In this document: positions 5,864 to 58,278 of the stretch, one piece after another | Numbering within the stretch: position 1 is the stretch's first letter | Layout of the letters: each line of letters starts with the position of its first letter | IMG/VR virus record: IMGVR_UViG_3300012943_000030 | Span: 43,698-107,697 of that record | Reading direction: 5' to 3' (one strand) | Length of the DNA: 64,000 bases | Origin: a virus | Lineage: Duplodnaviria; Heunggongvirae; Uroviricota; Caudoviricetes | Program-made: the position numbers and the translations under genes | Notes under the pieces: generated by a model | Seen by the model: only the letters and a program-made list of their open reading frames with translations | Database searches by the model: none | What the model was told of the DNA's origin: nothing

Positions 5864-6643
5864 TCAGAGCTTAGGTGCAACGGCTTTCCAGTACTCGCTG
5901 CACATGCTGGTGTGAGAACCTACGCCAGGGTGGATACCATCTCGCGCATGAGGTCGTCTGAAATTTTCTACTGGATATCGAACGAAGTTGTTTCCAGTTG
6001 AGCGTATGAGCTCACTCGCCTGTGGCTCCCAAGCCGCATGATAGGCGTCGCACTCCCAGTGCATGTACAGCGCCTCCATAATGTTGAGGCTTCTCACGCA
6101 CTGATGCTGCGCGAAGTGCGCATCGGTAAACAGCTTGTCTACATCAGCGCAGCTGCTGTTCGGCGTCCACAGCTGACCATTCGCTTTTCCGAAGCAGTAG
6201 TCTCTGCGGTGCATTGATGGAAACAGTGAGAACACCAGCACGGGCTTCACCTTTACGTTCTTGGCGAACCACATTGATGTTGCGGCCATGGTGTCAAATC
6301 CACCACCGCCGAAGGCGATGTTCCAATATGGTATCTTTTTGCCGGTTGCGGCTCGAAGCTTTTCGACCAGCTGGTAGGACCACGTGCTCGTCACTGGAAC
6401 TCCAATCCCTTCTGTTACGCTGCAGCCATTGAATAGAACTGGCAGCTCGCTCTCCTCGCTGAACTCATCGCATCTAAAACCGGCCGAGTTGAAGCTGTAG
6501 CTGAAGTCCTCAGGGCTGAACTGATTTGTCCAGCGAGGGTGCTGCTTTTTGTAGTTGGCTGCCGTGTCAGTTCCACACCACTGGCGAGTTTCACCACGCC
6601 GTGAGTTGATGCAGCCGAGATAATGATCAATGATGGTATCCAT
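5864..6643 (-). CDS. SGNH/GDSL-like hydrolase-family protein (paralogue of 54613..55428)
   Basis: Shares DFxYSFNxxGFRCxEF, GCSxTEGxGxP, IPYWNxAxxGG..DTMA and ARDGxHxG (DxxH) blocks with the ORF at 54613. Late-promoter-like GGTAAATACTCC directly upstream on the - strand. Confidence 0.5.
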   Translation of the reverse strand: MDTIIDHYLGCINSRRGETRQWCGTDTAANYKKQHPRWTNQFSPEDFSYSFNSAGFRCDEFSEESELPVLFNGCSVTEGIGVPVTSTWSYQLVEKLRAATGKKIPYWNIAFGGGGFDTMAATSMWFAKNVKVKPVLVFSLFPSMHRRDYCFGKANGQLWTPNSSCADVDKLFTDAHFAQHQCVRSLNIMEALYMHWECDAYHAAWEPQASELIRSTGNNFVRYPVENFRRPHARDGIHPGVGSHTSMCSEYWKAVAPKL

Positions 6644-19021: not shown

Positions 19022-19050
19022 GGGCCAGGGAAACCTGGCCCATTTTCTTT
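19022..19050 (+). terminator. rho-independent terminator
   Basis: GGGCCAGG-GAAA-CCTGGCCC followed by ATTTTCTTT. Confidence 0.6.
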
Positions 19051-19999
19051 AGCCTAGAGCCTGATCGGTTGAGCAAGATGGCGCGGCAATCGCTGAGGTA
19101 AGCGGTGAGCCGGTTGCGCGGAGGTGGCTAAGAGTTGCCACCGTTCCAGCCTGAGCCACGTCGTAGTAGGCGTTGGCATGATCTTCGTTGAAGTTACAGG
19201 CAATCTCTATGTAGGTACCCTTGGCACCGTTAACTCCGGCAATCGACGCTGCCTTGGCATAAACGCCGAGGGAGTTTGCTGAGTAAGCACCTGAACCAGA
19301 CACTGTAAAAATCTGCTGCCAGCTGGTTGTCAGCTCGTAATAGCCAATGCTGCTGCCTGTACCGTTGCCTGAAAGCTTTGTCGTTGAGTGAGCCCTGAAC
19401 GCGATGTTCAGGTTGTTCAACATGGTATTCCAGTCGATGTCCTGCGGTGAGCCGGTGTTTGGGTGGGCTAGAGCCAAGCGAAGCTCGCCGCCAGTGTTGA
19501 AGAAGTGACGAGCTGCATTCTCTGATGCAAACGATGTTCCGAAAACACACTGAATGAACGTGTTCCACGTAGTGCTGCGCGTTGTGCTTGCTGCAGACGA
19601 AGTCAGCGTCATGTTGCCGATCTGATAGTTCAGGCGGTTCGTGTCGAGCGTGCTGAGAATATCTGGGAAGCTTTTGCTGTCGCCTGCTTGATGCGCAACG
19701 ATGGGCGCACCGGCTGCCACCTGTGCAGCAGATGGAAGAGCTGTCGTTGAGGTGTTCTGCCATGAGCAGAGGTTTGATACAACGGTCTGAAGAGTTGACC
19801 AGCTTTGAGCGGTATTACCAGCGCTGAGGGCGGTAAGAGCAGGCGATGACTGACCGTATCCACGGTCTCCATAGCCAATGCCCCAGAGATATCCAGCCAC
19901 AGCAGTGGCGGCCGCTCCATTTCCTGCAGCAGTTCCCGTAAGACCTGCTAGCGCATTGTAATCAGCGGCTCTAACTGTCTGGCCGTGAGAGTAGCTCAT
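19049..19999 (-). CDS. tail fibre protein (C-terminal/receptor-binding part)
   Basis: Gly/Ala/Thr/Ser-rich. RBS GAGAG on the - strand. Adjacent to the large fibre gene. Confidence 0.55.
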   Translation of the reverse strand: MSYSHGQTVRAADYNALAGLTGTAAGNGAAATAVAGYLWGIGYGDRGYGQSSPALTALSAGNTAQSWSTLQTVVSNLCSWQNTSTTALPSAAQVAAGAPIVAHQAGDSKSFPDILSTLDTNRLNYQIGNMTLTSSAASTTRSTTWNTFIQCVFGTSFASENAARHFFNTGGELRLALAHPNTGSPQDIDWNTMLNNLNIAFRAHSTTKLSGNGTGSSIGYYELTTSWQQIFTVSGSGAYSANSLGVYAKAASIAGVNGAKGTYIEIACNFNEDHANAYYDVAQAGTVATLSHLRATGSPLTSAIAAPSCSTDQALG

Positions 20000-43425: not shown

Positions 43426-43746
43426 ATGAAGACAGCTCGAAAGCGCCGGTCGGACAGGGTTCACCTGATCTACGTTCTCACGAACACCATCACTGGTGAA
43501 GAGTACGTTGGACTGACGGTACGGCTTGATCGTTCAGGCAAGAAATCACTTGCTGCCCGTTGGGCTCGCCACGTCGGCCGCGCCCTCCTTCACAACAAAG
43601 ACTGGAAGCTGTGCGCGTCGATACGTGAGCACGGCCGATCGTCGTTCACTGCCAGAATTTTGCAGTTCGTTCACGGCAAAGCAGAGGCCTATGCCGTTGA
43701 AACGCGTTTGAGAAACACCGGCCTCTTCAAGCTCAATACCAACTGA
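43426..43746 (+). CDS. GIY-YIG nuclease-domain protein
   Basis: RVHLIYVLTN..GEEYVGLT..R....H pattern. The ATG lies only about 7 nt after the -10 box (leaderless, or start further in). Confidence 0.5.
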   Translation: MKTARKRRSDRVHLIYVLTNTITGEEYVGLTVRLDRSGKKSLAARWARHVGRALLHNKDWKLCASIREHGRSSFTARILQFVHGKAEAYAVETRLRNTGLFKLNTN

Positions 43747-43934
43747 TGAAGGACATCACGATGAACGTCAACATTCGCAATCTGCTGCTGGACGATGAGG
43801 ACCTTGAGATGACTGGAACGTTCCAGCGCATGCCGAGGAAGCCTCGCTTCGACGACGAAGTTCGTCGCACTGCAATCAAGAAGAAGCAGAGCCATCGCCC
43901 GGCTCAGGATCGTCGCGAAGTTGAAGCTGCTTGA
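43746..43934 (+). CDS. small hypothetical protein
   Basis: 62 aa. Confidence 0.25.
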   Translation: MKDITMNVNIRNLLLDDEDLEMTGTFQRMPRKPRFDDEVRRTAIKKKQSHRPAQDRREVEAA

Positions 43935-44581
43935 CGCACGTTGATGGACGGGCTCCTAAGGAGCCCTATCAACATCTTTTGCCTGGGGTAATCTCGGTCA
44001 AAAAATTCTTGAGCGTCATGCATGCTCAGGATAAAACGACCAAGAAGTTCAACCGGCGGAAGAGAGCCATCGACGACATGGTGCTCTTGAAGAAGATGTC
44101 TGTAGAAGAAGGCATCGAGTACATCAAGACCCAGCCATGGCGCAAGAAGGACGGCCACATCGTTGAGTGCACCACGAAGATGAAGGCCGTCAGGGTCCGC
44201 ATGTTCGCCAGTGGGCAAACGACGTGTGTGAAGTGCGGACTTGAAGGAATTTACTTCCGAATTGAACGACACAAGAACGACAGCGTCATGCCGTTCAGCG
44301 TTAACCTCTATGGCATCGACAAGTATGGCATCGAGACCATGCTTACGTGGGATCACATACTTCCACAGTCGCTGGACGGTGGCAACACCATCGAGAACGC
44401 ACAGTGCATGTGCCGACCGTGCAATGAAAAGAAGGGCAACAAGATGTCCTTGATGGACATAATCGGCGTCGCAACACATCCGCGGCCAGCCCAAATCTGG
44501 AAGAACCACCAGCTTCAAAGAATGCGTTTCGCCGACATTATCTGCTCGGCTCAGGCCGCATACAACAGGCTTGGAAAATAG
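43931..44581 (+). CDS. HNH homing-type endonuclease
   Basis: CVKCG...WDHILPQSLDGGNTIENAQCMCRPCNEKKGNK. Confidence 0.7.
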   Translation: MTHVDGRAPKEPYQHLLPGVISVKKFLSVMHAQDKTTKKFNRRKRAIDDMVLLKKMSVEEGIEYIKTQPWRKKDGHIVECTTKMKAVRVRMFASGQTTCVKCGLEGIYFRIERHKNDSVMPFSVNLYGIDKYGIETMLTWDHILPQSLDGGNTIENAQCMCRPCNEKKGNKMSLMDIIGVATHPRPAQIWKNHQLQRMRFADIICSAQAAYNRLGK

Positions 44582-45602: not shown

Positions 45603-45627
45603 TACAGCACCTGCCTGGTCGAGTGAA

Positions 45628-45656
45628 AGGGCCCTCACGTAGGGCCCTTTCTTTTG
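45628..45656 (+). terminator. rho-independent terminator
   Basis: AAGGGCCC-TCACGT-AGGGCCCTT followed by TCTTTTG. Confidence 0.6.
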
Positions 45657-45680: not shown

Positions 45681-45688
45681 CGATAAAT
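45681..45688 (+). promoter_or_regulatory. late-promoter-like GATAAATA heading the biosynthetic island
   Basis: CCAGGGCACGATAAATATG 6 nt before the ATG at 45694. Confidence 0.35.
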
Positions 45689-45693
45689 ATGAG

Positions 45694-46476
45694 ATGAAAT
45701 TTGCCTTTTGCATCTCAGGACAACCACGAACTTGGAAGAAGTGCTACAAGAGCTGGTATCAGCTCTTCGATCGGTTCGGCAGCGTTGACACATTTCTCCA
45801 TGCCTGGGACTTCAACAGCCAAGCCCGCTACAAGGCAGAGTACGTCGACAATGAACCCAAAGAAACTCCTGTTCCAAAGGAAGAGCTGAATGAGATGCTT
45901 GCCGCGCTTCAGCCAAAGAAGTTTATCATCGAGAGCAAGCGCGATGTGGAGCTCACCTGTGCCACTGGCCGAACCATTGCGCCGTACGCTCATCCACAAT
46001 ACTACGGTATTTGGAGAGCTGCTCACCTCAAGCGCCAGTATGAGATCGAGAACGATTTTCAGTATGATGTTGTTGTTCGGCTGAGGACTGACCTTCTGCT
46101 GCCGCAGCAGTGGGAACCGCTCTCAGCGAACCTGAGGTTTGATCCTTTAATTCTCATGGGAACGCCGCCAAATACCATCTTCACGGCGCAGAATGTTTTC
46201 ACACCTGGTGTTGGTCACCGCGTTAACGACATGTTCTTTTTTGCAGACAGCCTAACATACGATCATGCGGCTGCGTTCTACACAAGCTTCACCTACATAC
46301 AAGAAGACGTTGCTGTCCCACAGCAGAAGGATTACCCACCAGAGATGGCGCTCTACTTCTACTTTGCATCACTTGGCATTACCAACGTTGCTATGCCAAT
46401 GCGCGAGATAAAGATCATGCGTGATGAAGAGCACCTCCACCGCGTCGGCGAGCTGCAGAACTATGAAACAGCTTAA
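45694..46476 (+). CDS. uncharacterized family A protein (transferase-like; SGQxRTW / FxHxWD motifs)
   Basis: Shares N-terminal CISGQPRTW...FLHAWD and mid YDVVVRLRTD blocks with the ORFs at 46463 and 53280. Confidence 0.5.
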   Translation: MKFAFCISGQPRTWKKCYKSWYQLFDRFGSVDTFLHAWDFNSQARYKAEYVDNEPKETPVPKEELNEMLAALQPKKFIIESKRDVELTCATGRTIAPYAHPQYYGIWRAAHLKRQYEIENDFQYDVVVRLRTDLLLPQQWEPLSANLRFDPLILMGTPPNTIFTAQNVFTPGVGHRVNDMFFFADSLTYDHAAAFYTSFTYIQEDVAVPQQKDYPPEMALYFYFASLGITNVAMPMREIKIMRDEEHLHRVGELQNYETA

Positions 46477-47287
46477 CGTCGCAGTCTGTGTTTCAGGCCA
46501 ATCACGCACATGGCAGGCCGGGCTCGGGTACATGAAGGCATTCTTCAACTCACCACGCTGCAACGTGAAGTTCTTTGCTCACACGTGGGATGAGAACCAC
46601 TACAAGCAACCAGGACATGCTAAGGGCTGGAAACCATTTATTGAGGTGAAGCTAAACGCCAAGGTGCTAAGGCGTCAACTACTTGCGGCCGATGTCCGTT
46701 TTGAAGAACTCGTTGTTGATAAGCAGATCGCACCTCGAGAACAAACAACACGCACTAACTCCACGTATTTCACATCCTGGGCACCGATGTTTAAGAGCGC
46801 GGCGCTGTCGATGGCCATGAAGACGCGTTATGAAGTAGAAAACAACATGACGTTTGATGTAGTTTTCAAGACACGCTTCGACGTTGCCTATGATCCGAAT
46901 TTCACCGTTGAACACTACATTCCGGTTGACATCATCCCTGACGGCATCTATGTTCACACGACTAATTTTCAGAGTGAGTTTAGAATGCCCGTGCTCAGCG
47001 ATATTGCGTACTACGGATCATCAAGGGCGATGAACGTCCTTGACAGCTTTTGGTTCTACTACGACAATGGTCGCTTCCTTGAGATGCTTGACTATTCAGA
47101 CTACAACAGGGCGTACGATCTCGTCGGCCCTGGCGTGCTGCTGTACAAGTGGGCTACCATGAAAAACTTGAAGATCATCTCAAACCTTAGGCACTTCAAC
47201 CCGGTTCCAATACGTGCCCATGTGGCCGACGCCTTCCACCCCGACGGATACAAGCGCATCATCAATGCATACACGGACAACGAATGA
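46463..47287 (+). CDS. uncharacterized family A paralogue
   Basis: VCVSGQSRTW..FFAHTWDENHYK. Confidence 0.5.
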   Translation: MKQLNVAVCVSGQSRTWQAGLGYMKAFFNSPRCNVKFFAHTWDENHYKQPGHAKGWKPFIEVKLNAKVLRRQLLAADVRFEELVVDKQIAPREQTTRTNSTYFTSWAPMFKSAALSMAMKTRYEVENNMTFDVVFKTRFDVAYDPNFTVEHYIPVDIIPDGIYVHTTNFQSEFRMPVLSDIAYYGSSRAMNVLDSFWFYYDNGRFLEMLDYSDYNRAYDLVGPGVLLYKWATMKNLKIISNLRHFNPVPIRAHVADAFHPDGYKRIINAYTDNE

Positions 47288-48183
47288 CAAAGATCCTCCT
47301 AACGAACGGCGATAGCTGGACCTATGGTAGCGAGATCGCATGTCCAGAAATTCTTGTCATACCTGGCGAGCAGGGTTATGGCATGGCCAATCGCTACAAG
47401 AAAGGAATGTTCGACACGTTCCCGATCAACGACTACTACCGCATACCTCGCATCTGGCCTACGCACCTGTCGAAGCTCCTCGATATGAAGGACGTCAACA
47501 TCTCATGGCCCGCCCGATGCAACGACAACATCTGTGATGCAACTATCGGATGGGTGCTGAAGTTTCTCAATGACGGTGGTGATCCGAAGGACCTGCTGGT
47601 CGTGATCGGCTGGTCAAGCCCAGAGCGGAAGCGCATCCTCGTTGAAGACCTGAACGACGATGTCTACATGTACACGTTCTGGCCGTTCATGAGCACTGAG
47701 GACCAGTACTATGACATGCACGCAGCGAAGCAGTACTTCAAATTCTACGTACAGCATCTATGGTTCGAGCGTGAGTTCCTTGCTCGGTACGTTGAGCAGA
47801 ACTTTACGCTGCACACCTTCCTATCATCCCGCGGCATCAAGCACAAGTTCTTCAACGCCTTCTATCTCTATGCGCATGATCCAATACCAGTGTTTGAATG
47901 GAAGGATGTTGATCTCGCCGAAATCATCTCATCGTGGAAAACCCCAAAGAAGAAGCTCAAGGGGTATTATGAGCAGACGTGGCAATCAGATGACATGGCT
48001 GACTGCACTCTCAACCAGTGGAATTCAATTCCGGAAGATGTGTTTCTCTGGAAGAACACGCTGCGCTCGTTCAAATCGTACATTGATACGTCAATCCCAA
48101 ATCACAGTGATCGCATGATCAACATGCACCCAGCTCCAGATGGACATGAGGTTTGGGCCAAATATCTGGCGACGATCCTATGA
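47284..48183 (+). CDS. SGNH/GDSL hydrolase-family protein
   Basis: Block I LLTNGDSWTYGSE and block V HPAPDGHEVWAKYLA (DxxH). Confidence 0.6.
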   Translation: MTKILLTNGDSWTYGSEIACPEILVIPGEQGYGMANRYKKGMFDTFPINDYYRIPRIWPTHLSKLLDMKDVNISWPARCNDNICDATIGWVLKFLNDGGDPKDLLVVIGWSSPERKRILVEDLNDDVYMYTFWPFMSTEDQYYDMHAAKQYFKFYVQHLWFEREFLARYVEQNFTLHTFLSSRGIKHKFFNAFYLYAHDPIPVFEWKDVDLAEIISSWKTPKKKLKGYYEQTWQSDDMADCTLNQWNSIPEDVFLWKNTLRSFKSYIDTSIPNHSDRMINMHPAPDGHEVWAKYLATIL

Positions 48184-48959
48184 AGCGCCTAATAATCTGT
48201 GGAGACAGCTTCAATTGTGGGATCGGCTGTGAGAACCTCTATACCCAGCCGTACGGCGTGCTGCTCGCTAAGAAGCTCGGCTATGAGCTCATCACGCTGG
48301 CTAGAGGTGGTGGTAGCAACTACACAACGCACCTACAGGTAGAATATGCTGTTGAGAAGCTCAACCCATCGATCATCATTATAGGAACAACTTCATTCGA
48401 TCGCTTCGAGTGGATATCTGAAGGTAAGCACCTGCCAGGTGCGCCTTCGGCTGCAAACATCAACTACCACCAATATCCACCACACAACACGCCGTTCAAT
48501 GAGCATGGTCCAACAGATCACTTCTTCAGCGGTAAGGCGGAATACAACCCGATGATCTTGACGGAACAGGCGGGTGGCATTGATTACTTTGTGCAGCACC
48601 GGAACAAAGAGGGAATGGCAGCCTACTTTGAGCGCTACCACAATGAGCCGGTGAAAAAGCTTCAACTCATGGTTGACTACTACGTTCACGCATGTGATGA
48701 GCGCATCAAGCAACAGTATGATGTAGCCGTGCTGTTCAAGTCTTACATTAAGGCCACGAGGGCAGGAATAAGGTGCGTAGTCCTCACAAACGAACCAGAG
48801 CTTATGAAGCTTGTTGGCCCAGCTCGCACTCACGAGATGAGTTGGTTCGAGCTGAGCCGCACGTATCCTGACAGAGTTGGTTCTGGTCATGCAAGCCCGG
48901 AGGCGCACGCTATGGTGGCTGACCAGCTCTACACAAAGATCACAGGAGGCGCGACATGA
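48180..48959 (+). CDS. SGNH/GDSL hydrolase-family protein
   Basis: LIICGDSFNCGIG and C-terminal GSGHASPEAHAMVA. Confidence 0.55.
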   Translation: MKRLIICGDSFNCGIGCENLYTQPYGVLLAKKLGYELITLARGGGSNYTTHLQVEYAVEKLNPSIIIIGTTSFDRFEWISEGKHLPGAPSAANINYHQYPPHNTPFNEHGPTDHFFSGKAEYNPMILTEQAGGIDYFVQHRNKEGMAAYFERYHNEPVKKLQLMVDYYVHACDERIKQQYDVAVLFKSYIKATRAGIRCVVLTNEPELMKLVGPARTHEMSWFELSRTYPDRVGSGHASPEAHAMVADQLYTKITGGAT

Positions 48960-49074
48960 AACGACTTAGAGAATTCTTCAAGGTGCTGATCTACAAGGTC
49001 CGCGCCCACTACCGCTACAAGAAAAAGCTCAAGGAAATCAGGAAGCGTGATCCCTACATCTACAAGTAACCATC

Positions 49075-49821
49075 ATGATTAAAAAGATCTATGCGAGCGG
49101 CTGTAGTTGGACGGCCGGAAATGGAATTGAAGATGATCCACTTTATGCTGGTGTTCACAAGTCAAAAGTGAACACCTACATACATACCTGGCCGGTGCAT
49201 CTTGGTAAGGAGCTCGGCGTATCTGCCATCTACAATGATGCCACTGGCGGCGGAAGCAACGCAAGAATTCTGCGCAAGCTTATCGACTTCACTCGCCGTC
49301 TACCGGAAGAAGAGCGTGAAACTACGCTCGTGGTCATTGGATGGACGAGCGTGGAGCGCAGCGAGATCTTCATAGATCACAAGTCGCAACATACGCCAGA
49401 TGGATGGTACCGCTTTAACGCGACGCAGAAGTTCGATAGCTACCTTCAGGGGCTGCCAGTTGACAAGGTCAACGACATCTGCGAATTTCAACGATCGTAT
49501 CTGGCGAATGCGTATGAGCACAAGGGATGTGTGGAGGTTTTCTACCAACAGCTGTACCTTGCGAAACACCTGCTCATGTCCCTAAACATTCCATTCATAT
49601 TCTTTGCTGGATGCTGCTCTATGGACTTCCAGCCTAACAAGCTCGTCCAAAAAGATCTTGATGATCCACACATCATTGACATGGTCAATCTCACGATGCA
49701 CAATTGGTTGCGCATGAACAACATCAAGATCGGCCCATCAATACATCCACTGATTGATGGGCATCAAGCATGGGCTAAATATCTGGCATCAGAGCTTATC
49801 TCTAGAAAGATTATCACGTGA
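49075..49821 (+). CDS. SGNH-like hydrolase-family protein (Cys variant of GDS)
   Basis: IYASGCSWTAGNG and C-terminal HPLIDGHQAWAKYLA. Confidence 0.55.
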   Translation: MIKKIYASGCSWTAGNGIEDDPLYAGVHKSKVNTYIHTWPVHLGKELGVSAIYNDATGGGSNARILRKLIDFTRRLPEEERETTLVVIGWTSVERSEIFIDHKSQHTPDGWYRFNATQKFDSYLQGLPVDKVNDICEFQRSYLANAYEHKGCVEVFYQQLYLAKHLLMSLNIPFIFFAGCCSMDFQPNKLVQKDLDDPHIIDMVNLTMHNWLRMNNIKIGPSIHPLIDGHQAWAKYLASELISRKIIT

Positions 49822-50540
49822 CACTTATCATCTGCATGGCCGGGTTCAATACTCGCTTTCACGACGCGGGATTTGATCTACCGAAGTACCTGCTGCCGTA
49901 TGGTAGGTCGACTGTAATCGCCGAAATTTTGGCTAACCTGTCAGAAGTTCACAGCCCATCCGAGATAATTTGTCTTGCGAACATTCGCGACAGCTATTTC
50001 TCTGGCAAACTGACAGCAGAGGTAGAACAGTTCGGTGCGTTCGTGCACTACATTCGCGACACCAAGGGACAAGCACATACTGCTGCCATTGGTGCCGAGC
50101 TGACCACACAGCCAGGTCCACTGCTCATTCATAATGCCGACACAGTGCTTCTGAACCGCAATCTCGCAGAGATCGAAGCTGCTCTTCGCGTCAACACGGC
50201 GTACGTCGACGTGTTCGATGGTCAAAATCCGGCCTACTGCTTCCTTGATATTGGTGCAGACAACCGCGTGCTCAGCATCGCTGAGAAGAAGAACATAACC
50301 AAGTTCGCCAGCTCCGGGCTCTATGGCTTCAGCAGCGCAGAGCGCTATCTCGAGTTGTATCGTGAAAGTCTAATGACGTTTCAGGGACCAGAGATTTTCA
50401 TCTCTGATGTGCTCGCAACAACAATCAAGTGTGGAACTGTTGTGGCAAATTCACTGAACCCTGCTCATAACACGGTTGTCATTGGTAGCCCGCAAGAATA
50501 TCTGACAGCATTGGAGAGCCACAATGATCACTCAACTTAA
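49818..50540 (+). CDS. sugar/alcohol-phosphate nucleotidyltransferase (LicC/NTP_transferase-like)
   Basis: N-terminal ICMAGFNTRF (G-x-G-x-R NTase motif), LicC-like length of 240 aa. Confidence 0.6.
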   Translation: MTLIICMAGFNTRFHDAGFDLPKYLLPYGRSTVIAEILANLSEVHSPSEIICLANIRDSYFSGKLTAEVEQFGAFVHYIRDTKGQAHTAAIGAELTTQPGPLLIHNADTVLLNRNLAEIEAALRVNTAYVDVFDGQNPAYCFLDIGADNRVLSIAEKKNITKFASSGLYGFSSAERYLELYRESLMTFQGPEIFISDVLATTIKCGTVVANSLNPAHNTVVIGSPQEYLTALESHNDHST

Positions 50541-51492
50541 AGGTGGGTCGCTCAGCTCTACAACTCTCCACGCTGGAGATGGTCTGCCATTTGTTCGTAA
50601 GTCCATCAACAACAGCAAGAACAGAGAATATGGTTACACGCGCTGGTACTCGCAGCTGAAGAAGCTGCAGCAGATAAATGCTGCGGTGCCAGGCCTTGCA
50701 CCGGACCTGCTTAGGGTAGGCGTTGACCGCAAACAGTCGTACTTCGACATAGAATTCCTTGAAGGCTACACCAACATCAAGACCCTCCTGTGTGAGAGAC
50801 AGCTAAGTGATGAAGATATCGCCAAGATCCACGCCGCCGTTTGGTGTTCATTTGACAAGCTTCATGCTATAAAGATTGACCGTATTCAAGGCGCTCCTAG
50901 CCTGTACTTCCGTGAGGAGATATGGCAGAAGCTGGAGGACGCAGAGCTCAACATGGAGTTTGCACGGTTCGAAGAGGAGGTGCTGCACTCGCTAAACGGC
51001 GAGCTTGTCCCTCGAATTTGGACCCACATTAACGCCATTGAGCAGTACTTCTCGGAGCTGGTGCTCCCATCTGAAGAGCTCATTCATGGCAACCCAACGC
51101 TTGAGAACCTCATGTACTCGTTTCATGATGATGAGGTAGTGTTCATCGATGTCTACTCAGAGAGCTGCATTGACAGCAAGCTGCTTGACTACGCGCAGGT
51201 GCTTCAGTGCTCGCGCAGCTATTACGGCTTCATCAATGACAATGATGTGGTGGTCAACCACGGTGCGGTAGAGCATTCTCTTACCATTCCAATCAACCTC
51301 AAGAAGTTCAACGACATGTTTGAGGCTGAGCTTGAGCGCAGAGTGCCGCAGCACCGAAAGACCATCGCGCTGCTTGAGGCATCGCAGTTTATCCGCATGC
51401 TACCGTTCAAAGTGCTTGCTGGAGATATTGACAAGGCAAAGTTCTTTTACACTCTCGCGTGCAAACTCTTTCACGAGGCGATGCGCCCATGA
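50524..51492 (+). CDS. APH/choline-kinase-family phosphotransferase
   Basis: LIHGNPTLENLMY (HGD..N Brenner-like) and VVFIDVYSE (DxE) motifs. 322 aa. Confidence 0.5.
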   Translation: MITQLKGGSLSSTTLHAGDGLPFVRKSINNSKNREYGYTRWYSQLKKLQQINAAVPGLAPDLLRVGVDRKQSYFDIEFLEGYTNIKTLLCERQLSDEDIAKIHAAVWCSFDKLHAIKIDRIQGAPSLYFREEIWQKLEDAELNMEFARFEEEVLHSLNGELVPRIWTHINAIEQYFSELVLPSEELIHGNPTLENLMYSFHDDEVVFIDVYSESCIDSKLLDYAQVLQCSRSYYGFINDNDVVVNHGAVEHSLTIPINLKKFNDMFEAELERRVPQHRKTIALLEASQFIRMLPFKVLAGDIDKAKFFYTLACKLFHEAMRP

Positions 51493-52667
51493 ACCTACAA
51501 GAAGACTTTCAGAATTTCAAGCGTAGATGGCTCGTCAACACGCAACAGCCAGTCTCGTTTCAGGTGCAGTATTCGAGCGACATCTTCAATCCGAAAAACC
51601 ATGACCTCGCTAGCTACGGCACGTCAGTTCGTCGCATTGTGGTTATCGACAAGACGGTCAATGAGCTCTATGGCATGCAGCTCAAGCGGTATTTCTTTGC
51701 TCTTGGTGAGATCAATGTGGTGCTCCTCGAGATAGATGCCACTGAAGAAAACAAGACATGGGAAAACGTAGACACGGTCCTGAAGTTCTTTGAAGAGCAC
51801 GGCGTGCTGCGTCGGTCAGAGCCGATCATTGCCATCGGTGGTGGCGTGCTGCTTGATCTCGTAGGCTTCTGTGCCAGCATCTATCGTCGCGGCATCCCAT
51901 ACATCAAGGTGCCGACCACACTGCTTGCGATCGTTGACGCCTCTGTGGGATCAAAGGTCGCAGTTAACCACCTTGATCGCCGCAACCGCATTGGCGGTTA
52001 TTACCCACCTATCGTATCGCTGTTGGACCGCCGCTTCATCAAGACGCAGTCAGAGCGTGAGGTCGTGAATGGCCTCGCTGAGATCTTCAAGCTCGCGCTG
52101 ATCAAAGATGCAGAGCTGTTCACGATCCTAGAAGAGAACGCTGAGCAGCTTATTGAGGAGCGCTTCCAGTATGGAGCCGTACCAGTCCGGGTAATCAACC
52201 TCGCCATCACTGGCATGGTAGACGAGCTCGCGCCAAACCTATGGGAGAAGAAGCTTGACCGCTGCGTGGACTTCGGCCACTCATTCAGCCCACTCATTGA
52301 AATGAAGAACCTACCAAACCTGCTACATGGTGAGGCCGTCGTGCTAGATTGTCTGTTCAGCTCGTGCATTGCATTTAATCGAGGCTTCATTGACGGCGCA
52401 ACGCTCTCTCGCATTTTCTCTACAGCCAGGTTGCTAAAGCTTCCGACATATCATCCTGACTTTACTGATGTTCAGTTTCTTCTCAGCGCTCTAAGAGATA
52501 CAATGAAGCATCGAGATGGCAGACAGTTCCTCCCAGTACCAATCAGTATTGGAAACTATGTCATCATCAACGACGTCACAGACGCAGAAGTGGACAAAGC
52601 AGCCACACTCTTCAAGGAGCTCCATGAAAACAGCAGTCATCACAGGGACCAGCAAGGGGCTGGGTAA
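51489..52667 (+). CDS. 3-dehydroquinate-synthase-like sugar-phosphate cyclase (DHQS/DOIS/EEVS superfamily)
   Basis: GGGVLLDLVGFCASIYRRGIPYIKVPTTLLAIVDASVGSKVAVNH...RNRIGGYYPP matches AroB [45 protein letters not shown]...KNMIGAFYQP. Confidence 0.75.
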   Translation: MNLQEDFQNFKRRWLVNTQQPVSFQVQYSSDIFNPKNHDLASYGTSVRRIVVIDKTVNELYGMQLKRYFFALGEINVVLLEIDATEENKTWENVDTVLKFFEEHGVLRRSEPIIAIGGGVLLDLVGFCASIYRRGIPYIKVPTTLLAIVDASVGSKVAVNHLDRRNRIGGYYPPIVSLLDRRFIKTQSEREVVNGLAEIFKLALIKDAELFTILEENAEQLIEERFQYGAVPVRVINLAITGMVDELAPNLWEKKLDRCVDFGHSFSPLIEMKNLPNLLHGEAVVLDCLFSSCIAFNRGFIDGATLSRIFSTARLLKLPTYHPDFTDVQFLLSALRDTMKHRDGRQFLPVPISIGNYVIINDVTDAEVDKAATLFKELHENSSHHRDQQGAG

Positions 52668-53289
52668 AGCAACTGCCGAGCGCCTTTTGGCTCTCGGTTG
52701 GAAGGTTGTTGGGCTCGCGCGCAGCAAGACAGACATTGTTGATGAGAACTTCCTTGGCATAGAGATAGACATCACGAACTATTCTGACGTCATCTACTTC
52801 TCGAAGTCATTCAAAGGGAAGGCTGACCTGCTCATCAACAACGCTGCTATTTTCAAGATGGCTCCATTCGAGAGCTGCAGCCGCCAAGACATTGATGACG
52901 TCATTGACACGAACGTGAAGGCTTCAATGTACATGACGAGGTTCGGCCTTGAGTACCTGAACAAACCATCACGCATCATCTTCATCAACTCGGTCGCCGG
53001 GCTTGGTGAGCTCCGCGGGCAATCAATCTACTGTGCTTCAAAGTACGCGCTCACTGCCTTCGCTGGCGTCCTTGGTAAGGAGCTGAGGGAAGCGGGCATC
53101 AGGGTGAGCAGCATCCACCCTGGCGGCATCGACACACCCCTTTGGAATGAGAGCAACCCGTATCCACTCGACATCAGCCAGGCACTGTCAACTGCTGAGG
53201 TTGTTAGGGCCGTCGAGTTCATCATCGACGCCCCACACAACGTTGATTACAAGACAATCAAGCTGTTCCCATCGGTCGAGTGGCACTAA
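52624..53289 (+). CDS. short-chain dehydrogenase/reductase (SDR)
   Basis: TGTSKGLG dinucleotide-binding motif, NNAA, YxxxK region (YCASKYAL). Confidence 0.7.
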   Translation: MKTAVITGTSKGLGKATAERLLALGWKVVGLARSKTDIVDENFLGIEIDITNYSDVIYFSKSFKGKADLLINNAAIFKMAPFESCSRQDIDDVIDTNVKASMYMTRFGLEYLNKPSRIIFINSVAGLGELRGQSIYCASKYALTAFAGVLGKELREAGIRVSSIHPGGIDTPLWNESNPYPLDISQALSTAEVVRAVEFIIDAPHNVDYKTIKLFPSVEWH

Positions 53290-54053
53290 TGAAGGTAGCA
53301 ATCTGCTACAGCGGCCAGTTACGAACCGGCCTGAAGGCGCTAGAGAACCAACGGCTGTTCATAGACGTCGCAGCAGATTATTTCCTTCATACCTGGACAC
53401 ACAACACCAACAAGCGATTTGTGATCAACGGCGCTGAGGCAACAGAGGTGCCCGCCAACATCATCAGCGCGTATGTTGCACAGCTTAAGCCGAAGGCGTA
53501 CTATGTTGAGGATCCGACCGTGCTTAACATGCACGGTACAAACTTGGCTTGGAAGGGGCTCTACTATTCATGGCTGAAGAGCCTAGAATATCGGCGACAG
53601 TACGAGGCTGCTCTAGGGATAAAGTACGATGTCGTAGTGAAGATGCGACCCGACATCATCTTCAAACCTGGCAGAAAGCTGAGCGCCGTCATTAAGCAGG
53701 CGCTTAGAGAAAACGCGTTCATCCTAGAGAATGGCCTTTGGAACCCACCATATTCTACTGTCGTTGACGACGTGTTTTGGGCCGCGCCAACAAAGATCAT
53801 GGACATAGCGAGCGAATACTACTGGCACCTACCAGAGCATACTGCCGATCCAGGTGGTGGGCTCGGTGCCTTCCTTACGCAGCGCGACATAGCAATTGGC
53901 CGTGTCCCAGATGGGTGCTATTCAATTCTGCGCGCTGAGGCTGATCACCTGTCGCCAGTTGCCGACTTTGACAAGTGCTTCGAGCTTGAGCGCGAGCTGT
54001 ACCATACCATCCCTGTTGCTAACCCAAGTGGTTCACCTGCCTTTTACCGCTGA
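53280..54053 (+). CDS. uncharacterized family A paralogue
   Basis: ICYSGQLRTG..FLHTWTHN, and YDVVVKMRPD. Confidence 0.5.
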   Translation: MALMKVAICYSGQLRTGLKALENQRLFIDVAADYFLHTWTHNTNKRFVINGAEATEVPANIISAYVAQLKPKAYYVEDPTVLNMHGTNLAWKGLYYSWLKSLEYRRQYEAALGIKYDVVVKMRPDIIFKPGRKLSAVIKQALRENAFILENGLWNPPYSTVVDDVFWAAPTKIMDIASEYYWHLPEHTADPGGGLGAFLTQRDIAIGRVPDGCYSILRAEADHLSPVADFDKCFELERELYHTIPVANPSGSPAFYR

Positions 54054-54067
54054 GTAAATACTCGCGT

Positions 54068-54613
54068 ATGTCAAACATCTACTTTACGTCCGACCTGCAT
54101 TTCGGACACGAAAATATCATCAAGTACTGCAATCGCCCATATTCATCTGCGCAGGAGATGGATGAAGGGCTCATTCAGAATTGGAACGCGCGAGTACGCC
54201 ACAACGACATTGTATACGTCCTAGGCGACGTCTTCTTCTGTCAGGTGGACAAAGCGAAGCAGATCATGCATCGCCTCAATGGCAGCAAGCGCCTCGTGTT
54301 GGGCAACCATGACAAGCTCATTCGAAACCAGAAGCCGCTTCAGTCAATGTTTGAGGTGATCTTCCCAGATCTGTGGCATGAGACGATTGAGGGTACCTAT
54401 GTGGCGATGTGCCACTACCCGCTGCTCACGTGGCACAAGGCCCATCGCGGCGCCTACAACCTCCATGGTCACTGTCACAACACCATCCCCTTCGACACAA
54501 CGCGCAGGCGTCTAGACGTTGGCGTTGATGCTCAAGGTTACGCACCAATTCTTTGGCAAGAAATAAAGCGAAAGCTTGACAAAATAGAGCCAGGCGATCC
54601 GCGAGATTACTGA
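54068..54613 (+). CDS. calcineurin-like metallophosphoesterase
   Basis: DLHFGH, GDVFF and GNHD motifs. Confidence 0.75.
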   Translation: MSNIYFTSDLHFGHENIIKYCNRPYSSAQEMDEGLIQNWNARVRHNDIVYVLGDVFFCQVDKAKQIMHRLNGSKRLVLGNHDKLIRNQKPLQSMFEVIFPDLWHETIEGTYVAMCHYPLLTWHKAHRGAYNLHGHCHNTIPFDTTRRRLDVGVDAQGYAPILWQEIKRKLDKIEPGDPRDY

Positions 54614-55428
54614 TGGACAGTTATGACCCAATGTTTTGGTTTTTGAAGGGGTCAGCTGAGCCACGTGTTGTACAATGGCACAGCACCGATACAGCTGAAA
54701 GCTACAGCGAAGATTTGGTCTCCGGCAAAAACCCATTCAAGCCTGGTGATTTTGATTACTCATTCAATGCCAACGGCTTTAGGTGTGAAGAGTTCAATCT
54801 TCCATCTGATCTACAGACGGTTTTCTGTGGGTGCAGCAATACTGAGGGGGTAGGCTTACCTCTAGAAAATGTATGGGCCCACTGCGTTCTTCAGCAGATG
54901 AGGGAAAAAACAGGGCTGACCATTCCGTATTGGAACACCGCTGTGTCTGGCGGTGCCGTAGATACGATGGCATCACAGCTGTTCTACATCCATCGCAAGA
55001 CAAAAATACGGCCCAAGCTTGTCATCGGCTGGATCCCACCGCTCTATGTTAGAGACTTCTCATTCCGCTCAAGCAAAGAATTTCACTACTCGAATGTTCC
55101 GGGCTCTCGACACCCAGTATTTGTTGATGAGCTGATTACGCCTGTCTTCACTGACAAATACTTCTACCACCATCAGGCCGTTAGAAGCCTAAGAATGATC
55201 TCACTGATCTGTGAAATGTGGGATGCCAAGATGGTTATGGCGTGTAGAGGTGGCTCTGGATTTGACGTGATAAGCTCGCAGCTTCAAGGCTTCACACATG
55301 TTCAAATTCCGCAGCTTAGAACGTGCGATGCGAGAGATGGCATGCACTATGGTGCCCCATTCCACAAGGAACTCGCAGGCAACTTTTGGAAAAAAATAGA
55401 ACCGCTGCTTAGCGAGCTTCAGCCGTAA
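54613..55428 (+). CDS. SGNH-like hydrolase-family protein (paralogue of the - strand gene at 5864..6643)
   Basis: FCGCSNTEGVG, IPYWNTAVSGG, ARDGMHYG. Confidence 0.5.
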   Translation: MDSYDPMFWFLKGSAEPRVVQWHSTDTAESYSEDLVSGKNPFKPGDFDYSFNANGFRCEEFNLPSDLQTVFCGCSNTEGVGLPLENVWAHCVLQQMREKTGLTIPYWNTAVSGGAVDTMASQLFYIHRKTKIRPKLVIGWIPPLYVRDFSFRSSKEFHYSNVPGSRHPVFVDELITPVFTDKYFYHHQAVRSLRMISLICEMWDAKMVMACRGGSGFDVISSQLQGFTHVQIPQLRTCDARDGMHYGAPFHKELAGNFWKKIEPLLSELQP

Positions 55429-56765: not shown

Positions 56766-57302
56766 ATGAGGATGTGGTTGATACAACGCGCGAAGATCAT
56801 TCACCCGCTGGCTGAGCCCACCGCTCGCATCAGCGATGCTGTTCGCTTCGACTACATGGGTTCCGCCGAGTTTGAGTTCGGTGCCTTGCCAAAGTCTCTG
56901 CGCGACATGCAGGCAGTGGACGCCCTCATCACCATCCGTACCCTTAACCACATCAAGGACGACCAGGACCGCTCAGTGCGCGTGCTGTCGGCCCTCGACG
57001 ACAAGCAGTTCGCCGAGTACAACTCACTGCTCATTGACCTCCGCGCCGACAAGGTGCGCCTCAAGGAGTGGAGCAAGTTCGCGGCTGAAGAGCCGAAGAA
57101 GGCGCCGCCCTACGTCAAGAGCAACGCTGAGCTGCGGCGCTGGACGGCCCAGCAGGCTGAGCGCGACATCTGGAAGCCTGACTTCTGGTGGGACATCAAC
57201 AACAACACCATGTTCTCCTTCAACAAGGAGTTCATGAACCGCCTCCACGACTACCTGCACGCCAGCTGGGTGTGGATGGACGAGCAGAAGAAGGCATCAT
57301 GA
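56766..57302 (+). CDS. hypothetical protein
   Basis: RBS GAGGG. The ORF-track upstream extension overlaps the promoter, so the start is set at 56766. Confidence 0.45.
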   Translation: MRMWLIQRAKIIHPLAEPTARISDAVRFDYMGSAEFEFGALPKSLRDMQAVDALITIRTLNHIKDDQDRSVRVLSALDDKQFAEYNSLLIDLRADKVRLKEWSKFAAEEPKKAPPYVKSNAELRRWTAQQAERDIWKPDFWWDINNNTMFSFNKEFMNRLHDYLHASWVWMDEQKKAS

Positions 57303-57754
57303 AGAAGGGAGAGATGCTGAACGCGATGTTGGTCCTCGCGACCAACAAGCACGCTGGTCAAATGGACAAGGGTGGCCACCCCTACATTCTCCACCCCCTC
57401 GCCGTCATGACGATGCTGAACTCAGAGGACGAGGAGCTGATGTGCGGTGCCATCGGCCATGACCTCATCGAGGACACTGACACCACGTACCATGAGCTGA
57501 AGGAAGCTGGCATGACGGAGCGCGTCGTCAACTGCATCCGCTGCCTGACAAAGCTTCCTGGTGAAACATACGATGAGTACAAGGCAAAGGTCAAGAGCAA
57601 CGCTGATGCAGTGCGCGTGAAGCTCTGCGACCTCCGCCACAACACCGACATTCGACGCCTGCGCGGCGTCGCCGAAAAAGATATTTCAAGAATGGCCCGC
57701 TATTTCCACTTCTACATGGAGCTGCAGGCGATCATCAAGGAGCCCTGCAAGTGA
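57299..57754 (+). CDS. RelA/SpoT-type HD-domain (p)ppGpp hydrolase-like protein
   Basis: LATNKHAGQMDKGGHPYILHPLAV matches the HD_4 signature AxxAHxGQxRKxGEPYIxHPL. HD...D residues present. Confidence 0.6.
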   Translation: MKKGEMLNAMLVLATNKHAGQMDKGGHPYILHPLAVMTMLNSEDEELMCGAIGHDLIEDTDTTYHELKEAGMTERVVNCIRCLTKLPGETYDEYKAKVKSNADAVRVKLCDLRHNTDIRRLRGVAEKDISRMARYFHFYMELQAIIKEPCK

Positions 57755-58278
57755 AGACGTACTACTCCTATGAGGAGATCGAGAGCACGGTCAAGAAGAT
57801 CGTGGCTGAGGAGTTCAACACAGAGGTTCACCTGCTCAGTCTCGGTACCTCATTTCGCGCCGACCTAGGAACTGACAGCCTCGACACCGTTGAGCTTGTG
57901 ATGGCCCTCGAAGAGGCCTTTGACTTCAACATATCTGATGATGACGGTGAGGGTATTGAGACGCTCGGTGATGCCGTCAACTTCGTGTGCAAGCACTTCA
58001 ACATTGAACCAAAGACAACGAAGCTCATTGAAGGTTTCTCGTTCCGCTCTGCCATCGAACAGCGCGCCATTCACTTCATGACCGTGTATGGCTTCGACGG
58101 TATGCGCTGGAGCAGCGTGAAGGAATGGCTCTTCAAGGAAACAGGTGGAGATGTGAGCACGAAGAAGGGAAAGGCCGCCGTCAAGAGGGTGCAGCCAGAG
58201 ATCATCACCACACTTTCCGATCCGAAGCTCCTCGAGCTGTATGAGCTCGTCGTTCGTCAGCACAGCAAGCAGATGTGA
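57751..58278 (+). CDS. protein with N-terminal acyl-carrier-protein-like domain
   Basis: LGTDSLDTVELVMALEEAFDF (DSL phosphopantetheine attachment motif). Confidence 0.45.
   Translation: MKTYYSYEEIESTVKKIVAEEFNTEVHLLSLGTSFRADLGTDSLDTVELVMALEEAFDFNISDDDGEGIETLGDAVNFVCKHFNIEPKTTKLIEGFSFRSAIEQRAIHFMTVYGFDGMRWSSVKEWLFKETGGDVSTKKGKAAVKRVQPEIITTLSDPKLLELYELVVRQHSKQM

Follow-up and report, generated by a model that had tools for sequence, protein, structure and literature searches.

An uncultured large phage, represented by a metagenomic contig of 198,078 bp, carries a biosynthetic island that is probably an operon making a nucleotide-activated C7-cyclitol (carbasugar), used to decorate an acceptor. 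The phage also has 29 tRNAs and T4-type replication genes. The window analysed here is a 64,000-nucleotide stretch of this contig, and the island occupies positions 45694-55428 within it. A first-pass annotation had described such an island; its presence as a whole was confirmed, and the interpretation given to it was supported, as the cyclase did not group with AroB, its catalytic residues are conserved, and the block recurs in related phages. We infer the product and the acceptor, as that annotation did. No prior report of such a phage operon was found in the literature.

Layout of the island and its cyclase

The island is a contiguous block of 12 co-oriented, overlapping ORFs (gA to gL) on the + strand, all at their annotated positions. 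The ATGA coupling described for its junctions holds at gB/gC, gC/gD and gG/gH; other junctions are GTGA (gE/gF), TAATG (gI/gJ) and TGATG (gK/gL), and the remaining overlaps measure 14, 17 and 44 nt. Just two gaps occur, one of 14 nt and one of 115 nt between gD and gE. The latter contains a doubtful gene, a very basic 37-aa ORF (48956..49069, + strand), which is called in loci L028 and L029 and is not kept in L033, a relative of the window's phage with which it has flanking genes in common.

A late-promoter motif directly after a terminator had been noticed at the start of the island, and both elements were recovered. The upstream gene is closed by an intrinsic-terminator-like hairpin (45625..45651, + strand), with an 11-bp GC-rich stem including 7 GC pairs, followed by the T-run TTTTGCC. 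The putative promoter, a T4-late-promoter-like motif GATAAATA (45682..45689, + strand), ends 5 nt upstream of the gA ATG. This octamer is present in 6 copies in the window versus 0.36 expected, a number reached in none of 100 shuffles. A terminator hairpin precedes two of the copies, and CAGrrcACGATAAATA is common to three.

gH (51489..52667, + strand) is, as proposed, a member of the 3-dehydroquinate-synthase superfamily of sugar-phosphate cyclases (Pfam DHQ_synthase, N domain 119 bits, C domain 70 bits). Its best match was the EEVS enzyme ValA (4P53; 332 bits, 46% identity), versus 210 bits for DDGS, at most 155 for DHQS and 90 for DOIS, and the aroB equivalog model scored 209.7 against a cut-off of 305. 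All 120 gH homologues compared keep the three metal ligands, Asp281 and His360 (ValA numbering), and both the Lys and the Asn contact residues. Asp281 and His360, the two of the 14 published EEVS fingerprint residues covered by our comparison, are shared by gH and ValA, and are replaced by Ala/Thr in DDGS and Asn/Val in DHQS. At three sites compared with ValA, the Asn, His and Val of DHQS are Asp, Pro and His in gH. Judged by its sequence, gH is a validamycin-type (EEVS-type) cyclase, not AroB.

Activation, transfer and SGNH genes

The gene upstream of the cyclase, gG (50524..51492, + strand), had been called an APH/choline-kinase-like phosphotransferase. Sequence searches of Pfam (including APH) and PDB gave no match, and its identification comes from the predicted fold. 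The AF2 model (pLDDT 93.5) retrieved with Foldseek the anomeric sugar kinase NahK first (4OCJ, E 7e-8, TM 0.59; just 12% sequence identity), then APH(2'') and APH(3'). The predicted fold is protein-kinase-like; Lys26, Glu35, Asp209 and the Gly-rich loop do not vary across the family. The catalytic loop, IHGNPTLEN, is atypical: the catalytic-base Asp of HxDxxxxN is an Asn in 119/120 homologues, and this part of the proposed identity is weakened. As a kinase gG may be slow or unusual, or its activity may be a different one altogether.

The other two predicted enzymes of the set were also identified. gF (49818..50540, + strand) is a sugar-phosphate-type nucleotidyltransferase, above the cut-off for PF00483, NTP_transferase (29.2 versus 21.2 bits), and matching the NDP-sugar pyrophosphorylase 4EVW over residues 3-232 (E 7.5e-18). 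gI (52624..53289, + strand) is a classical SDR (adh_short, 138 bits; motifs TGTSKGLG, NNAA and YCASK) and presumably the cyclitol ketoreductase. The metallophosphoesterase gK (54068..54613, + strand; phrog_547, E 1e-59), originally counted among the pathway enzymes, keeps its family assignment but not that role. Homologues of gK turned up in 1967 deposited phage records, all lacking both cyclase and kinase, and it adjoins the cassette just in the window's own lineage (L001, L031, L033). It probably belongs to the general gene stock of phages and does not take part in the pathway.

Three transferase-like paralogues of unrecognised family, first listed at 45694, 46463 and 53280, form one family, here called X, assigned to phrog_13607. 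These are gA (45694..46476, + strand), gB (46463..47287, + strand; BLASTP to gA E 6e-8, aligning in alignment A1) and gJ (53289..54053, + strand; BLASTP to gA E 7e-18). According to structure prediction, all three fold as GT-A glycosyltransferases, and their structural relatives include phage and giant-virus transferases, one being the enzyme with which PBCV-1 glycosylates its capsid protein.

The five proteins described as SGNH paralogues do all belong to that superfamily, but as two subfamilies rather than one group. The first comprises gC (47284..48183, + strand; DUF6071, 55.7 bits; GDS and DGH motifs), gE (49075..49821, + strand; DUF6071, 45.2 bits; BLASTP to gC E 1e-10) and the divergent DUF6071-like gD (48180..48959, + strand; BLASTP to gE E 9e-4), which has invariant G9, S11 and H282 in alignment A3 and is 50% identical to the syntenic L033 gene. 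The second includes gL (54613..55428, + strand), whose family profile matches the SGNH esterase 9OTV (E 8e-7); 8/40 family members match Pfam Lipase_GDSL, with G73, S75, T77 and G79 invariant and D242 and H245 near-invariant. Its paralogue gM (5864..6643, - strand; 36% identity to gL, E 7e-55) does lie inside the tRNA array, between tRNA-Arg genes at 5786-5861 and 6669-6744, and gM-like genes are found within the module in 12/80 related loci. The two subfamilies are linked by profile comparison only (gC to the GDSL-like gL family, hhalign 97%, E 7e-11).

Conservation and exchange of the precursor cassette

A gH relative was found in 109 IMG/VR contigs, and neighbours were counted in the best 80 of these. 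The kinase lies directly upstream of the cyclase in 73/73 loci and the SDR directly downstream in 74/74, while a nucleotidyltransferase is upstream in 69/73 viral loci. The kinase-EEVS-SDR order is collinear in all IMG/VR loci with sufficient flank, over a GC content from 33% to 53%. One context of the cassette is a set of cyanomyophage-like contigs, with a gp41 homologue 62% identical to that of Synechococcus phages. The upstream X-X-SGNH-SGNH block is kept in 62-79 of 80 further loci found via family X. The cyclase, kinase and DUF6071 were absent from all deposited phage records searched, including Synechococcus phage S-SM2.

In L033, a different cassette is held at the equivalent position, between the same transferase genes. 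It encodes shikimate-DH-like, GatZ/KbaZ-like and cupin proteins, and a fused nucleotidyltransferase-APH protein. Through the fusion, kinase and nucleotidyltransferase are linked as parts of a single activation step, and the swap shows that the cassette for the precursor can be exchanged as a whole.

Proposed pathway, related systems and alternatives

From homology and synteny, we propose that gH would convert host sedoheptulose 7-phosphate (S7P) into 2-epi-5-epi-valiolone and phosphate, and that gI would reduce the ring ketone to give a cyclitol. gG would phosphorylate one of the ring hydroxyls, the pseudo-anomeric C1-OH being the likeliest, and gF would join the cyclitol phosphate with an NTP into an NDP-cyclitol. 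gA, gB and gJ would move the cyclitol, or other sugars next to it, onto a cytoplasmic acceptor, and acyl groups would be added or removed by gC, gD, gE, gL and gM. Counted against this pathway are the Asn of gG and the extent of the EEVS fingerprint comparison, 2/14 residues.

Actinomycete C7-cyclitol pathways use the EEVS ValA/AcbC, kinases ValC/AcbM/AcbU, reductases ValN/AcbL/AcbN, nucleotidyltransferases ValB/AcbR and pseudoglycosyltransferases ValL/AcbS. The phage operon has the same type of first enzyme and would follow the same logic, S7P being cyclised, reduced, phosphorylated and nucleotidyl-activated. However, it resides in a virus, its route is shorter with four genes always collinear, and it has no epimerase, dehydratase, aminotransferase or GT-B pseudoglycosyltransferase. 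Its transferases are GT-A-like and accompanied by SGNH proteins, and its NahK-like kinase differs from the actinomycete cyclitol kinases, which belong to other families. EboD of the ebo operon, like other orphan sugar-phosphate cyclases, also lies near the EEVS/DDGS clade and has spread horizontally (PMC5133447), but its cluster encodes a UbiA prenyltransferase, a TatD hydrolase and a TIM-barrel protein, and lacks the partners found here.

Other resemblances concern activation. LicA/LicC (choline kinase and CTP:phosphocholine cytidylyltransferase) likewise activate an alcohol with an APH/choline-kinase fold beside a small nucleotidyltransferase, and TarI/TarJ (CDP-ribitol) couple a reductase with a nucleotidyltransferase. 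In the phage, the cyclase itself would supply the alcohol, a carbocyclic heptitol, and the island yielded no phosphotransferase of LicD or TagF type. NahK with a sugar-1-phosphate nucleotidyltransferase performs C1-OH phosphorylation followed by NDP-sugar formation, the steps proposed here, although the substrate of gG would be a carbasugar. T4-like cyanophages have carbohydrate/'LPS' gene islands, and in that of S-SM2 a weak family X homologue (E 4e-6), SSM2_209, annotated 'capsular polysaccharide biosynthesis protein', lies among nucleotidyltransferase, carbohydrate kinase, epimerase and GT11/GT25 genes.

The proposed transfer faces a chemical objection: NDP is displaced less easily from a saturated carbasugar than it is from glycosyl donors. 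The known pseudoglycosyltransferases, ValL and AcbS, are GT-B enzymes using allylic valienol, and the island has neither dehydratase nor GT-B enzyme. The hard displacement at a non-anomeric ring carbon would be sidestepped if the same NDP-cyclitol (e.g. CDP-cyclitol) donated cyclitol phosphate, forming a phosphodiester link to a glycan or protein in the manner of CDP-choline (LicA/LicC/LicD), CDP-ribitol (TarI/TarJ) or CDP-glycerol. The kinase and nucleotidyltransferase pair, fused in the swapped cassette, follows LicA/LicC logic; this cassette resembles a polyol/ketose route more than a classical NDP-hexose route, and the L026 nucleotidyltransferase weakly matches the cytidylyltransferase IspD. 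Phosphate transfer is nevertheless unlikely: searches of the island gave no member of the LicD, TagF, Stealth or CDP-alcohol phosphatidyltransferase families, and its conserved transferases resemble GT-A enzymes.

We give little credence to a free small molecule acting on host metabolism or competitors, such as a validamycin/acarbose-like glycosidase or trehalase inhibitor or a gadusol-like sunscreen. All characterised EEVS pathways do yield secondary metabolites, the acarbose and validamycin routes pass through kinase, nucleotidyltransferase and reductase steps to a soluble product, and a methyltransferase and a DegT-type aminotransferase adjoin the cassette in cyanomyophage-like contexts. 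In the window, however, aminotransferase, GT-B pseudoglycosyltransferase and MT-Ox are all absent. The partners that stay constant belong to GT-A-like and SGNH-like families, with the PBCV-1 enzyme among their relatives, and a block accepting a quite different precursor cassette better fits decoration of one common acceptor.

There is also a small chance that gH acts on something other than S7P or releases another product (EVS-like, DDGS-like or new), so that a different carbocycle results. Its modest identity to ValA and the two-residue fingerprint would allow this, and the cassette of one viral lineage, into which genes for a RuBisCO-like protein and for a small protein of 108 aa are inserted, hints at extra ketose-phosphate chemistry. 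Yet in all 120 homologues compared both residues separating EEVS from DDGS are EEVS-type, the ValA score is far above the others, and EVS enzymes reportedly cluster with sequences of the DHQS-like kind (PMC5133447). That gH is an auxiliary shikimate-pathway AroB raising aromatic amino acid synthesis beside unrelated neighbours is extremely improbable, and already contradicted: source databases label its homologues '3-dehydroquinate synthase' and the Pfam domain names agree, but the aroB score and the three replaced DHQS residues speak against it, as do the ever-adjacent kinase and SDR and the AroB-like matches in the phage collection, which are 27-34% identical and in several cases bacterial-genome records annotated aroB.

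Returning to a nucleotide-activated C7-cyclitol used for decoration, we note that the genes of the island include neither a membrane protein nor a flippase or lipid-carrier transferase. This makes a glycan built up on a lipid carrier a less likely acceptor than a soluble precursor of the host or one of the phage's own macromolecules, virion protein or DNA.

Organisation of the island and identity of its cyclase

The window belongs to a 198,078-bp metagenomic contig (ENA ERZ27256383). It carries an array of 29 tRNA genes (1567-7412), broken by an SGNH-like gene on the opposite strand (gM, 5864-6643, -), together with genes for a helicase, a head-decoration-like protein, HNH and GIY-YIG endonucleases, and a T4-type topoisomerase II large subunit sharing 53% identity with its counterparts in Xanthomonas phages BUDD and X1. 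These features mark the source clearly as a large tailed phage. When the island and another 24 kb of the window were searched by megablast against 50,697 deposited phage records, no nucleotide-level relative was detected.

The first-pass annotation had described a co-oriented block of translationally coupled genes, starting behind a terminator with a late-promoter motif, and this organisation was recovered. Twelve ORFs, gA to gL, fill positions 45694-55428, all on the + strand. Of the eleven junctions between them, nine overlap: three read ATGA and one GTGA, TAATG and TGATG account for one each, and the other three span 14, 17 and 44 nt. The sole sizeable intergenic gap is occupied by a very basic ORF of 37 aa (MKRLREFFKVLIYKVRAHYRYKKKLKEIRKRDPYIYK, 48956-49069), which the related locus L033 does not conserve. 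The island begins after a terminator-like GC hairpin with an 11-bp stem and a T-run (45625-45651), and the octamer GATAAATA at 45682-45689 (+) ends 5 nt short of the ATG of gA. Six copies of this octamer are present in the window (6745, 8562, 11024, 37498, 45682 (+) and 59821 (-)), versus 0.36 expected. Three of them share the sequence CAGrrcACGATAAATA, two are preceded by a terminator hairpin, and at two sites other than 45682 a start codon follows some 40 nt downstream of the octamer. One copy is found between two tRNA genes. The octamer is a likely candidate for a phage promoter element; if it were a -10 element of the T4 late type, the gA mRNA would be nearly leaderless.

The cyclase gene, gH (51489-52667), encodes the two-domain architecture of the dehydroquinate synthase (DHQS) superfamily (PF01761, 119 bits; PF24621, 70 bits). 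Its score was 332 bits against ValA, the synthase of 2-epi-5-epi-valiolone (EEVS) with structure 4P53 (E 3e-98, 46% identity), compared to 210 bits against the DDGS 5TPR, 155 against the best genuine DHQS and 90 against DOIS; identity was 35% to DDGS and 33% to DHQS. Two active-site positions are reported to discriminate between EEVS and DDGS (PMC4426668). When 120 gH homologues were aligned with ValA, DDGS and one DHQS, the metal ligands Glu, His and His were invariant in all 120. In a fingerprint comparison covering 2 of 14 published residues and a set composed of ValA, DDGS and DHQS, the sites of ValA Asp281 and His360, which we take to be the two discriminating positions and which are consistent with the 4P53 alignment numbering, were Asp and His in all 120 homologues, Ala and Thr in DDGS, and Asn and Val in DHQS. 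The enzyme is most likely to convert sedoheptulose 7-phosphate (S7P) into 2-epi-5-epi-valiolone, as predicted from these residues and scores, although its product may be EVS-like or novel instead.

An auxiliary AroB of the shikimate pathway is rejected on the cyclase scores, the equivalog cut-offs (209.7 versus 305 for TIGR01357, 182 versus 333 for NF004852) and the residues at three sites compared with ValA: the Asn and second His of NxGHxxGH and the residue at the ValA-His360 site, which in the DHQS of V. cholerae are Asn, His and Val, are Asp, Pro and His in the phage clade. The earlier assignment of this gene to the superfamily is supported, as the enzyme does not group with genuine AroB and its catalytic residues are kept. 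Thousands of metagenomic homologues of gH exist; the best 120 clusters are 64-88% identical to it and, where they bear any name, it is "dehydroquinate synthase" only.

Enzymes encoded around the cyclase

Two neighbours of gH were classified in agreement with their initial naming. The gI product (52624-53289) is a classical SDR (adh_short, 138 bits; motifs TGTSKGLG, NNAA and YCASK). The gF product (49818-50540) is classed as a sugar-phosphate-type nucleotidyltransferase (NT): it matches PF00483 with 29.2 bits for a cut-off of 21.2, as well as 4EVW, an uncharacterised Vibrio NDP-sugar pyrophosphorylase (E 7.5e-18), and its N-terminal nucleotide-binding loop MAGFNTRF aligns with MAGMSSRF of the latter.

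For gG and for family X, made of the paralogues gA, gB and gJ, searches of Pfam, NCBIfam and PDB (phmmer) gave no identity, so that fold prediction was needed. The AF2 model of gG (50524-51492; pLDDT 93.5) adopts a bilobal protein-kinase-like fold, and Foldseek placed on top the anomeric sugar kinase NahK (4OCJ, E 7e-8), then APH(2'') and APH(3'), with probability 1.0. LKGGSL, K26, E35 and D209 are invariant among 32 sequences; their roles as Gly-rich loop, Lys/Glu pair and Mg-binding Asp are assigned from position in the fold, not from a residue-level structural alignment. In the loop IHGNPTLEN (residues 187-195), an Asn stands at the place of the catalytic Asp of HxDxxxxN in 119 of 120 homologues; this loop aligns with HGDLQFDN of a fused NT-APH protein, which retains HGD. 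No match to Pfam APH (PF01636) was found for gG at E ≤ 10, the sole match being Fructosamin_kin (E 0.03); one homologue, P0149, does carry PF01636. The initial description as an APH-like phosphotransferase agrees with the kinase fold and the structural kinship with NahK and APH, but gG has neither the Pfam domain nor the catalytic Asp. It may act as a kinase that is slow or unusual in its mechanism, or it may be no kinase at all.

The family X proteins, formerly described as unrecognised but transferase-like, are predicted to have a GT-A (nucleotide-diphospho-sugar transferase) fold, which agrees with that description. Residues H36, W38, E117, R131, D133 and D179 are invariant; R131-x-D133 lies at the end of strand 126-131, D125 is almost invariant, and the canonical DxD is absent. 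Neither Pfam nor NCBIfam placed gA, gB or gJ in a curated GT family, and their relatives had sub-threshold matches to DUF7796 only. Among predicted viral structures, the nearest belong to uncharacterised proteins from uncultured tailed phages, from the Synechococcus phages S-SKS1 and S-PRM1, and from giant viruses; a "DUF7796" protein is included.

The five genes that had been taken for SGNH paralogues are assigned by profile to the SGNH/GDSL hydrolase superfamily, but they form two groups. In the first, gC and gE match Pfam DUF6071 above cut-off and gD is a divergent relative. The second contains gL and gM, the latter being the fifth gene previously noticed inside the tRNA array; they are 36% identical and belong to a family of 2589 representatives, whose profile matches the SGNH esterase 9OTV (E 8e-7). 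Lipase_GDSL is matched by 8 of 40 members of this family, in which G73, S75, G113, D242 and H245 (Gly-x-Ser, block II Gly, Asp-x-x-His) are conserved. BLAST gave no link between the groups; they are joined at the profile level only (hhalign 97%, E 7e-11, 198 columns). A gM homologue resides within a glycan-type module, not in a tRNA array, in 12 of 80 related loci. Just 3' of the island, at 57299-58278, are genes for an HD_4 protein (RelA/SpoT-type HD) and for a 175-aa protein with a precomputed Pfam PP-binding (acyl-carrier-like) match on record. This putative phage acyl carrier adjoins several SGNH-type proteins, and the two may be functionally linked.

The gene at 54068, gK, does encode a metallophosphoesterase (phrog_547), as first annotated. 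Its proposed part in the pathway is unsupported: homologues occur in 1967 phage records devoid of the cassette, and gK is best left out of the pathway. It adjoins the cassette in the window's own lineage only.

Conservation and exchange of the precursor cassette

Conservation in related phages, a check proposed in the first-pass annotation, was observed. In a first IMG/VR scan, NT, kinase, cyclase and SDR were collinear in all 27 loci found. A profile-based scan for the cyclase then yielded 109 viral contigs and the best 80 were retained, partners being counted in loci with enough flank: the kinase lay directly upstream of the cyclase in 73/73 loci, the SDR directly downstream in 74/74, and the NT upstream in 69/73. 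The GC content of these loci is 33-42% (33-53% at the widest) versus approximately 50% in the island, which indicates that the cassette is maintained across very different genomes. Overall, the four-gene cassette was recovered from no fewer than 109 IMG/VR contigs and from hundreds of clusters of metagenomic proteins. An antisense ORF (52001-52414, -) that "matched" every related locus is an artefact and no gene, as its opposite strand is the conserved cyclase gene.

Outside this set, when 185,579 species genomes of bacteria and archaea were scanned with exact peptide patterns, no close relative of gH was returned, a pattern-based result that leaves absence unproven; the only homologue found, from Gracilibacteria, was 29% identical. 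Among the 50,697 deposited phage records, tblastn of gH found AroB-like matches only (27-34% identity), several of which fall in bacterial genome records and are annotated aroB, and neither the gG kinase nor DUF6071 had a match.

A second context of the EEVS cassette is that of cyanomyophage-like contigs, which encode a gp41 homologue with 62% identity to those of Synechococcus phages. There, a single family X gene precedes the cassette, a 240-aa protein follows it, and the island also encodes an NDP-sugar epimerase, a methyltransferase, a DegT-type enzyme and a 2OG oxygenase. This 240-aa protein ("family 4"; L007, L013, L024 ~11790-12520) comes directly after the SDR in 19 of the 27 loci from the first scan; it has no Pfam match and no homologue in the window. 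Other conserved genes that flank the cassette in other lineages (L026 11838-15868) encode radical-SAM proteins, an 845-aa protein and a 498-aa protein, whose N-terminus looks, by eye, like that of a putative carbamoyltransferase. On the 6.3-kb contig L031 (1935-4700), an identical cyclase protein (P0004), an SDR and a phosphoesterase are preceded by just a 76-residue kinase remnant, with a Crp-family regulator on the opposite strand; this locus represents a deletion variant or else a chimeric assembly.

Scanning IMG/VR for family X yielded 118 loci, 80 of which were retained. The block X-X-gC-gD(-gE) is kept in 62-79 of these 80 and is followed by one of several precursor cassettes. Type A, commoner than the EEVS type, comprises a cupin, a fused NT-APH with canonical HGDxxxxN, a shikimate-DH-like protein and a GatZ/KbaZ-like protein; it was found in L033 and in 52 of the 80 loci (L035-L114). 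Type B (NT, kinase, EEVS, SDR) is that of the window and of a 71.8-kb contig with four DUF6071 genes; in L032 it stands behind five family X paralogues, radical-SAM genes and a methyltransferase, with no DUF6071 there. Type C (NT', a 108-aa protein, a RuBisCO-like protein, kinase, an EEVS 50-53% identical, SDR) occurs in 9 of the 80 family X loci, L066 being the same contig as L026. The RuBisCO-like gene (RuBisCO_large, E 2e-33; L026 7614-9055) and the 108-aa gene are inserted between the NT and the kinase-EEVS-SDR trio in one lineage, and the insertion is also present in L049, L053, L055, L057, L061, L062, L064, L072, L073 and L107. In two loci, the RuBisCO-like and 108-aa genes are found without the trio.

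L033 comes from a relative of the window phage, with which it shares the GIY-YIG and HNH genes, two upstream genes, gC (56%) and gK (67%). Exactly where the window has type B, L033 carries type A (14246-19472: mannose-6-P-isomerase-like cupin, 503-aa NT-APH fusion, shikimate-dehydrogenase-like protein, 154-aa protein, GatZ/KbaZ-like protein), which amounts to a natural cassette swap. Homing-endonuclease-like genes of the GIY-YIG and HNH types are located directly upstream of the island (43426-44581) and are kept in L001 and L033; they could help in mobilising the cassette.

A possible route to an activated cyclitol

The constant kinase-EEVS-SDR trio, the near-constant NT and the fusion of kinase and NT in an exchangeable cassette argue for a single activation route, of which we infer every step. 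gH would cyclise S7P to 2-epi-5-epi-valiolone, gI would reduce the ketone, gG would phosphorylate a ring hydroxyl, and gF would turn the phosphate ester into an NDP-cyclitol. The latter would be used by the GT-A-like proteins, and the SGNH-like proteins would add or remove acyl groups. On balance, we consider it somewhat probable that the operon produces a C7-cyclitol in nucleotide-activated form and puts it to use.

The front end of this route works like those of the validamycin and acarbose pathways, and to that extent the initial suggestion of a valienol/acarbose-type pathway was apt. However, the GT-B pseudoglycosyltransferase, aminotransferase and epimerase/dehydratase of those clusters were not detected in the island, which for this reason is not to be filed among them, and its kinase and transferases have folds other than those of their counterparts there. 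The kinase-nucleotidyltransferase logic also resembles that of LicA/LicC and TarI/TarJ. A serious rival to pseudoglycosyl transfer is that the cyclitol phosphate is transferred, in the fashion of CDP-choline or CDP-ribitol; moving a saturated carbasugar off an NDP is demanding chemistry, but no LicD- or TagF-type enzyme was found in the island to carry out the phosphate transfer.

Whichever the transfer, a cytoplasmic acceptor (virion protein, DNA or a soluble precursor) appears more likely, because the island encodes no membrane protein, flippase or polyprenyl-phosphate transferase. Any one particular acceptor is much less probable than the activated cyclitol itself. PHROG scans of the surrounding window genes gave no DNA-modification or structural clue to it. 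Weak hints of virion decoration come from the late-promoter-like motif and from the resemblance in structure between family X and viral transferases, such as the one with which PBCV-1 glycosylates its capsid protein. The setting recalls the carbohydrate ("LPS") islands that cyanomyophages such as S-SM2 carry, in which a weak homologue of family X is located.

EEVS-type cyclases are documented in bacterial secondary metabolism (validamycin, acarbose, kirkamide) and in vertebrate sunscreen synthesis. Full-text literature searches returned no paper in which phages or viruses are tied to EEVS, to sugar-phosphate cyclases or to cyclitols, nor any that mentions DUF6071; phages and viruses are likewise absent from a 2026 cyclitol review. 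The island thus apparently represents a widespread, unreported EEVS-based cyclitol pathway in a new class of hosts, whose partner enzymes are new and whose architecture is modular.

More tentatively, it could be that many uncultured aquatic phages convert S7P into an NDP-carbasugar and attach it covalently to a macromolecule, which would be a protein of the virion, the DNA of the phage or a precursor of the host envelope, by means of a GT-A/SGNH locus with swappable cassettes and a protein-kinase-like kinase working without the canonical catalytic Asp. If true, this would be the first virus-made carbasugar glycoconjugate, and it would resist glycosidases. If the chemistry is right, phages own a short, portable path to an activated carbasugar, a new class of GT-A-like enzymes handling it, and a modular "decoration locus" with an exchangeable precursor cassette. 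These enzymes would be on offer for the synthesis of pseudo-sugar conjugates, and the pathway would be relevant to the ways in which phages modify virions, DNA or host surfaces against defences.
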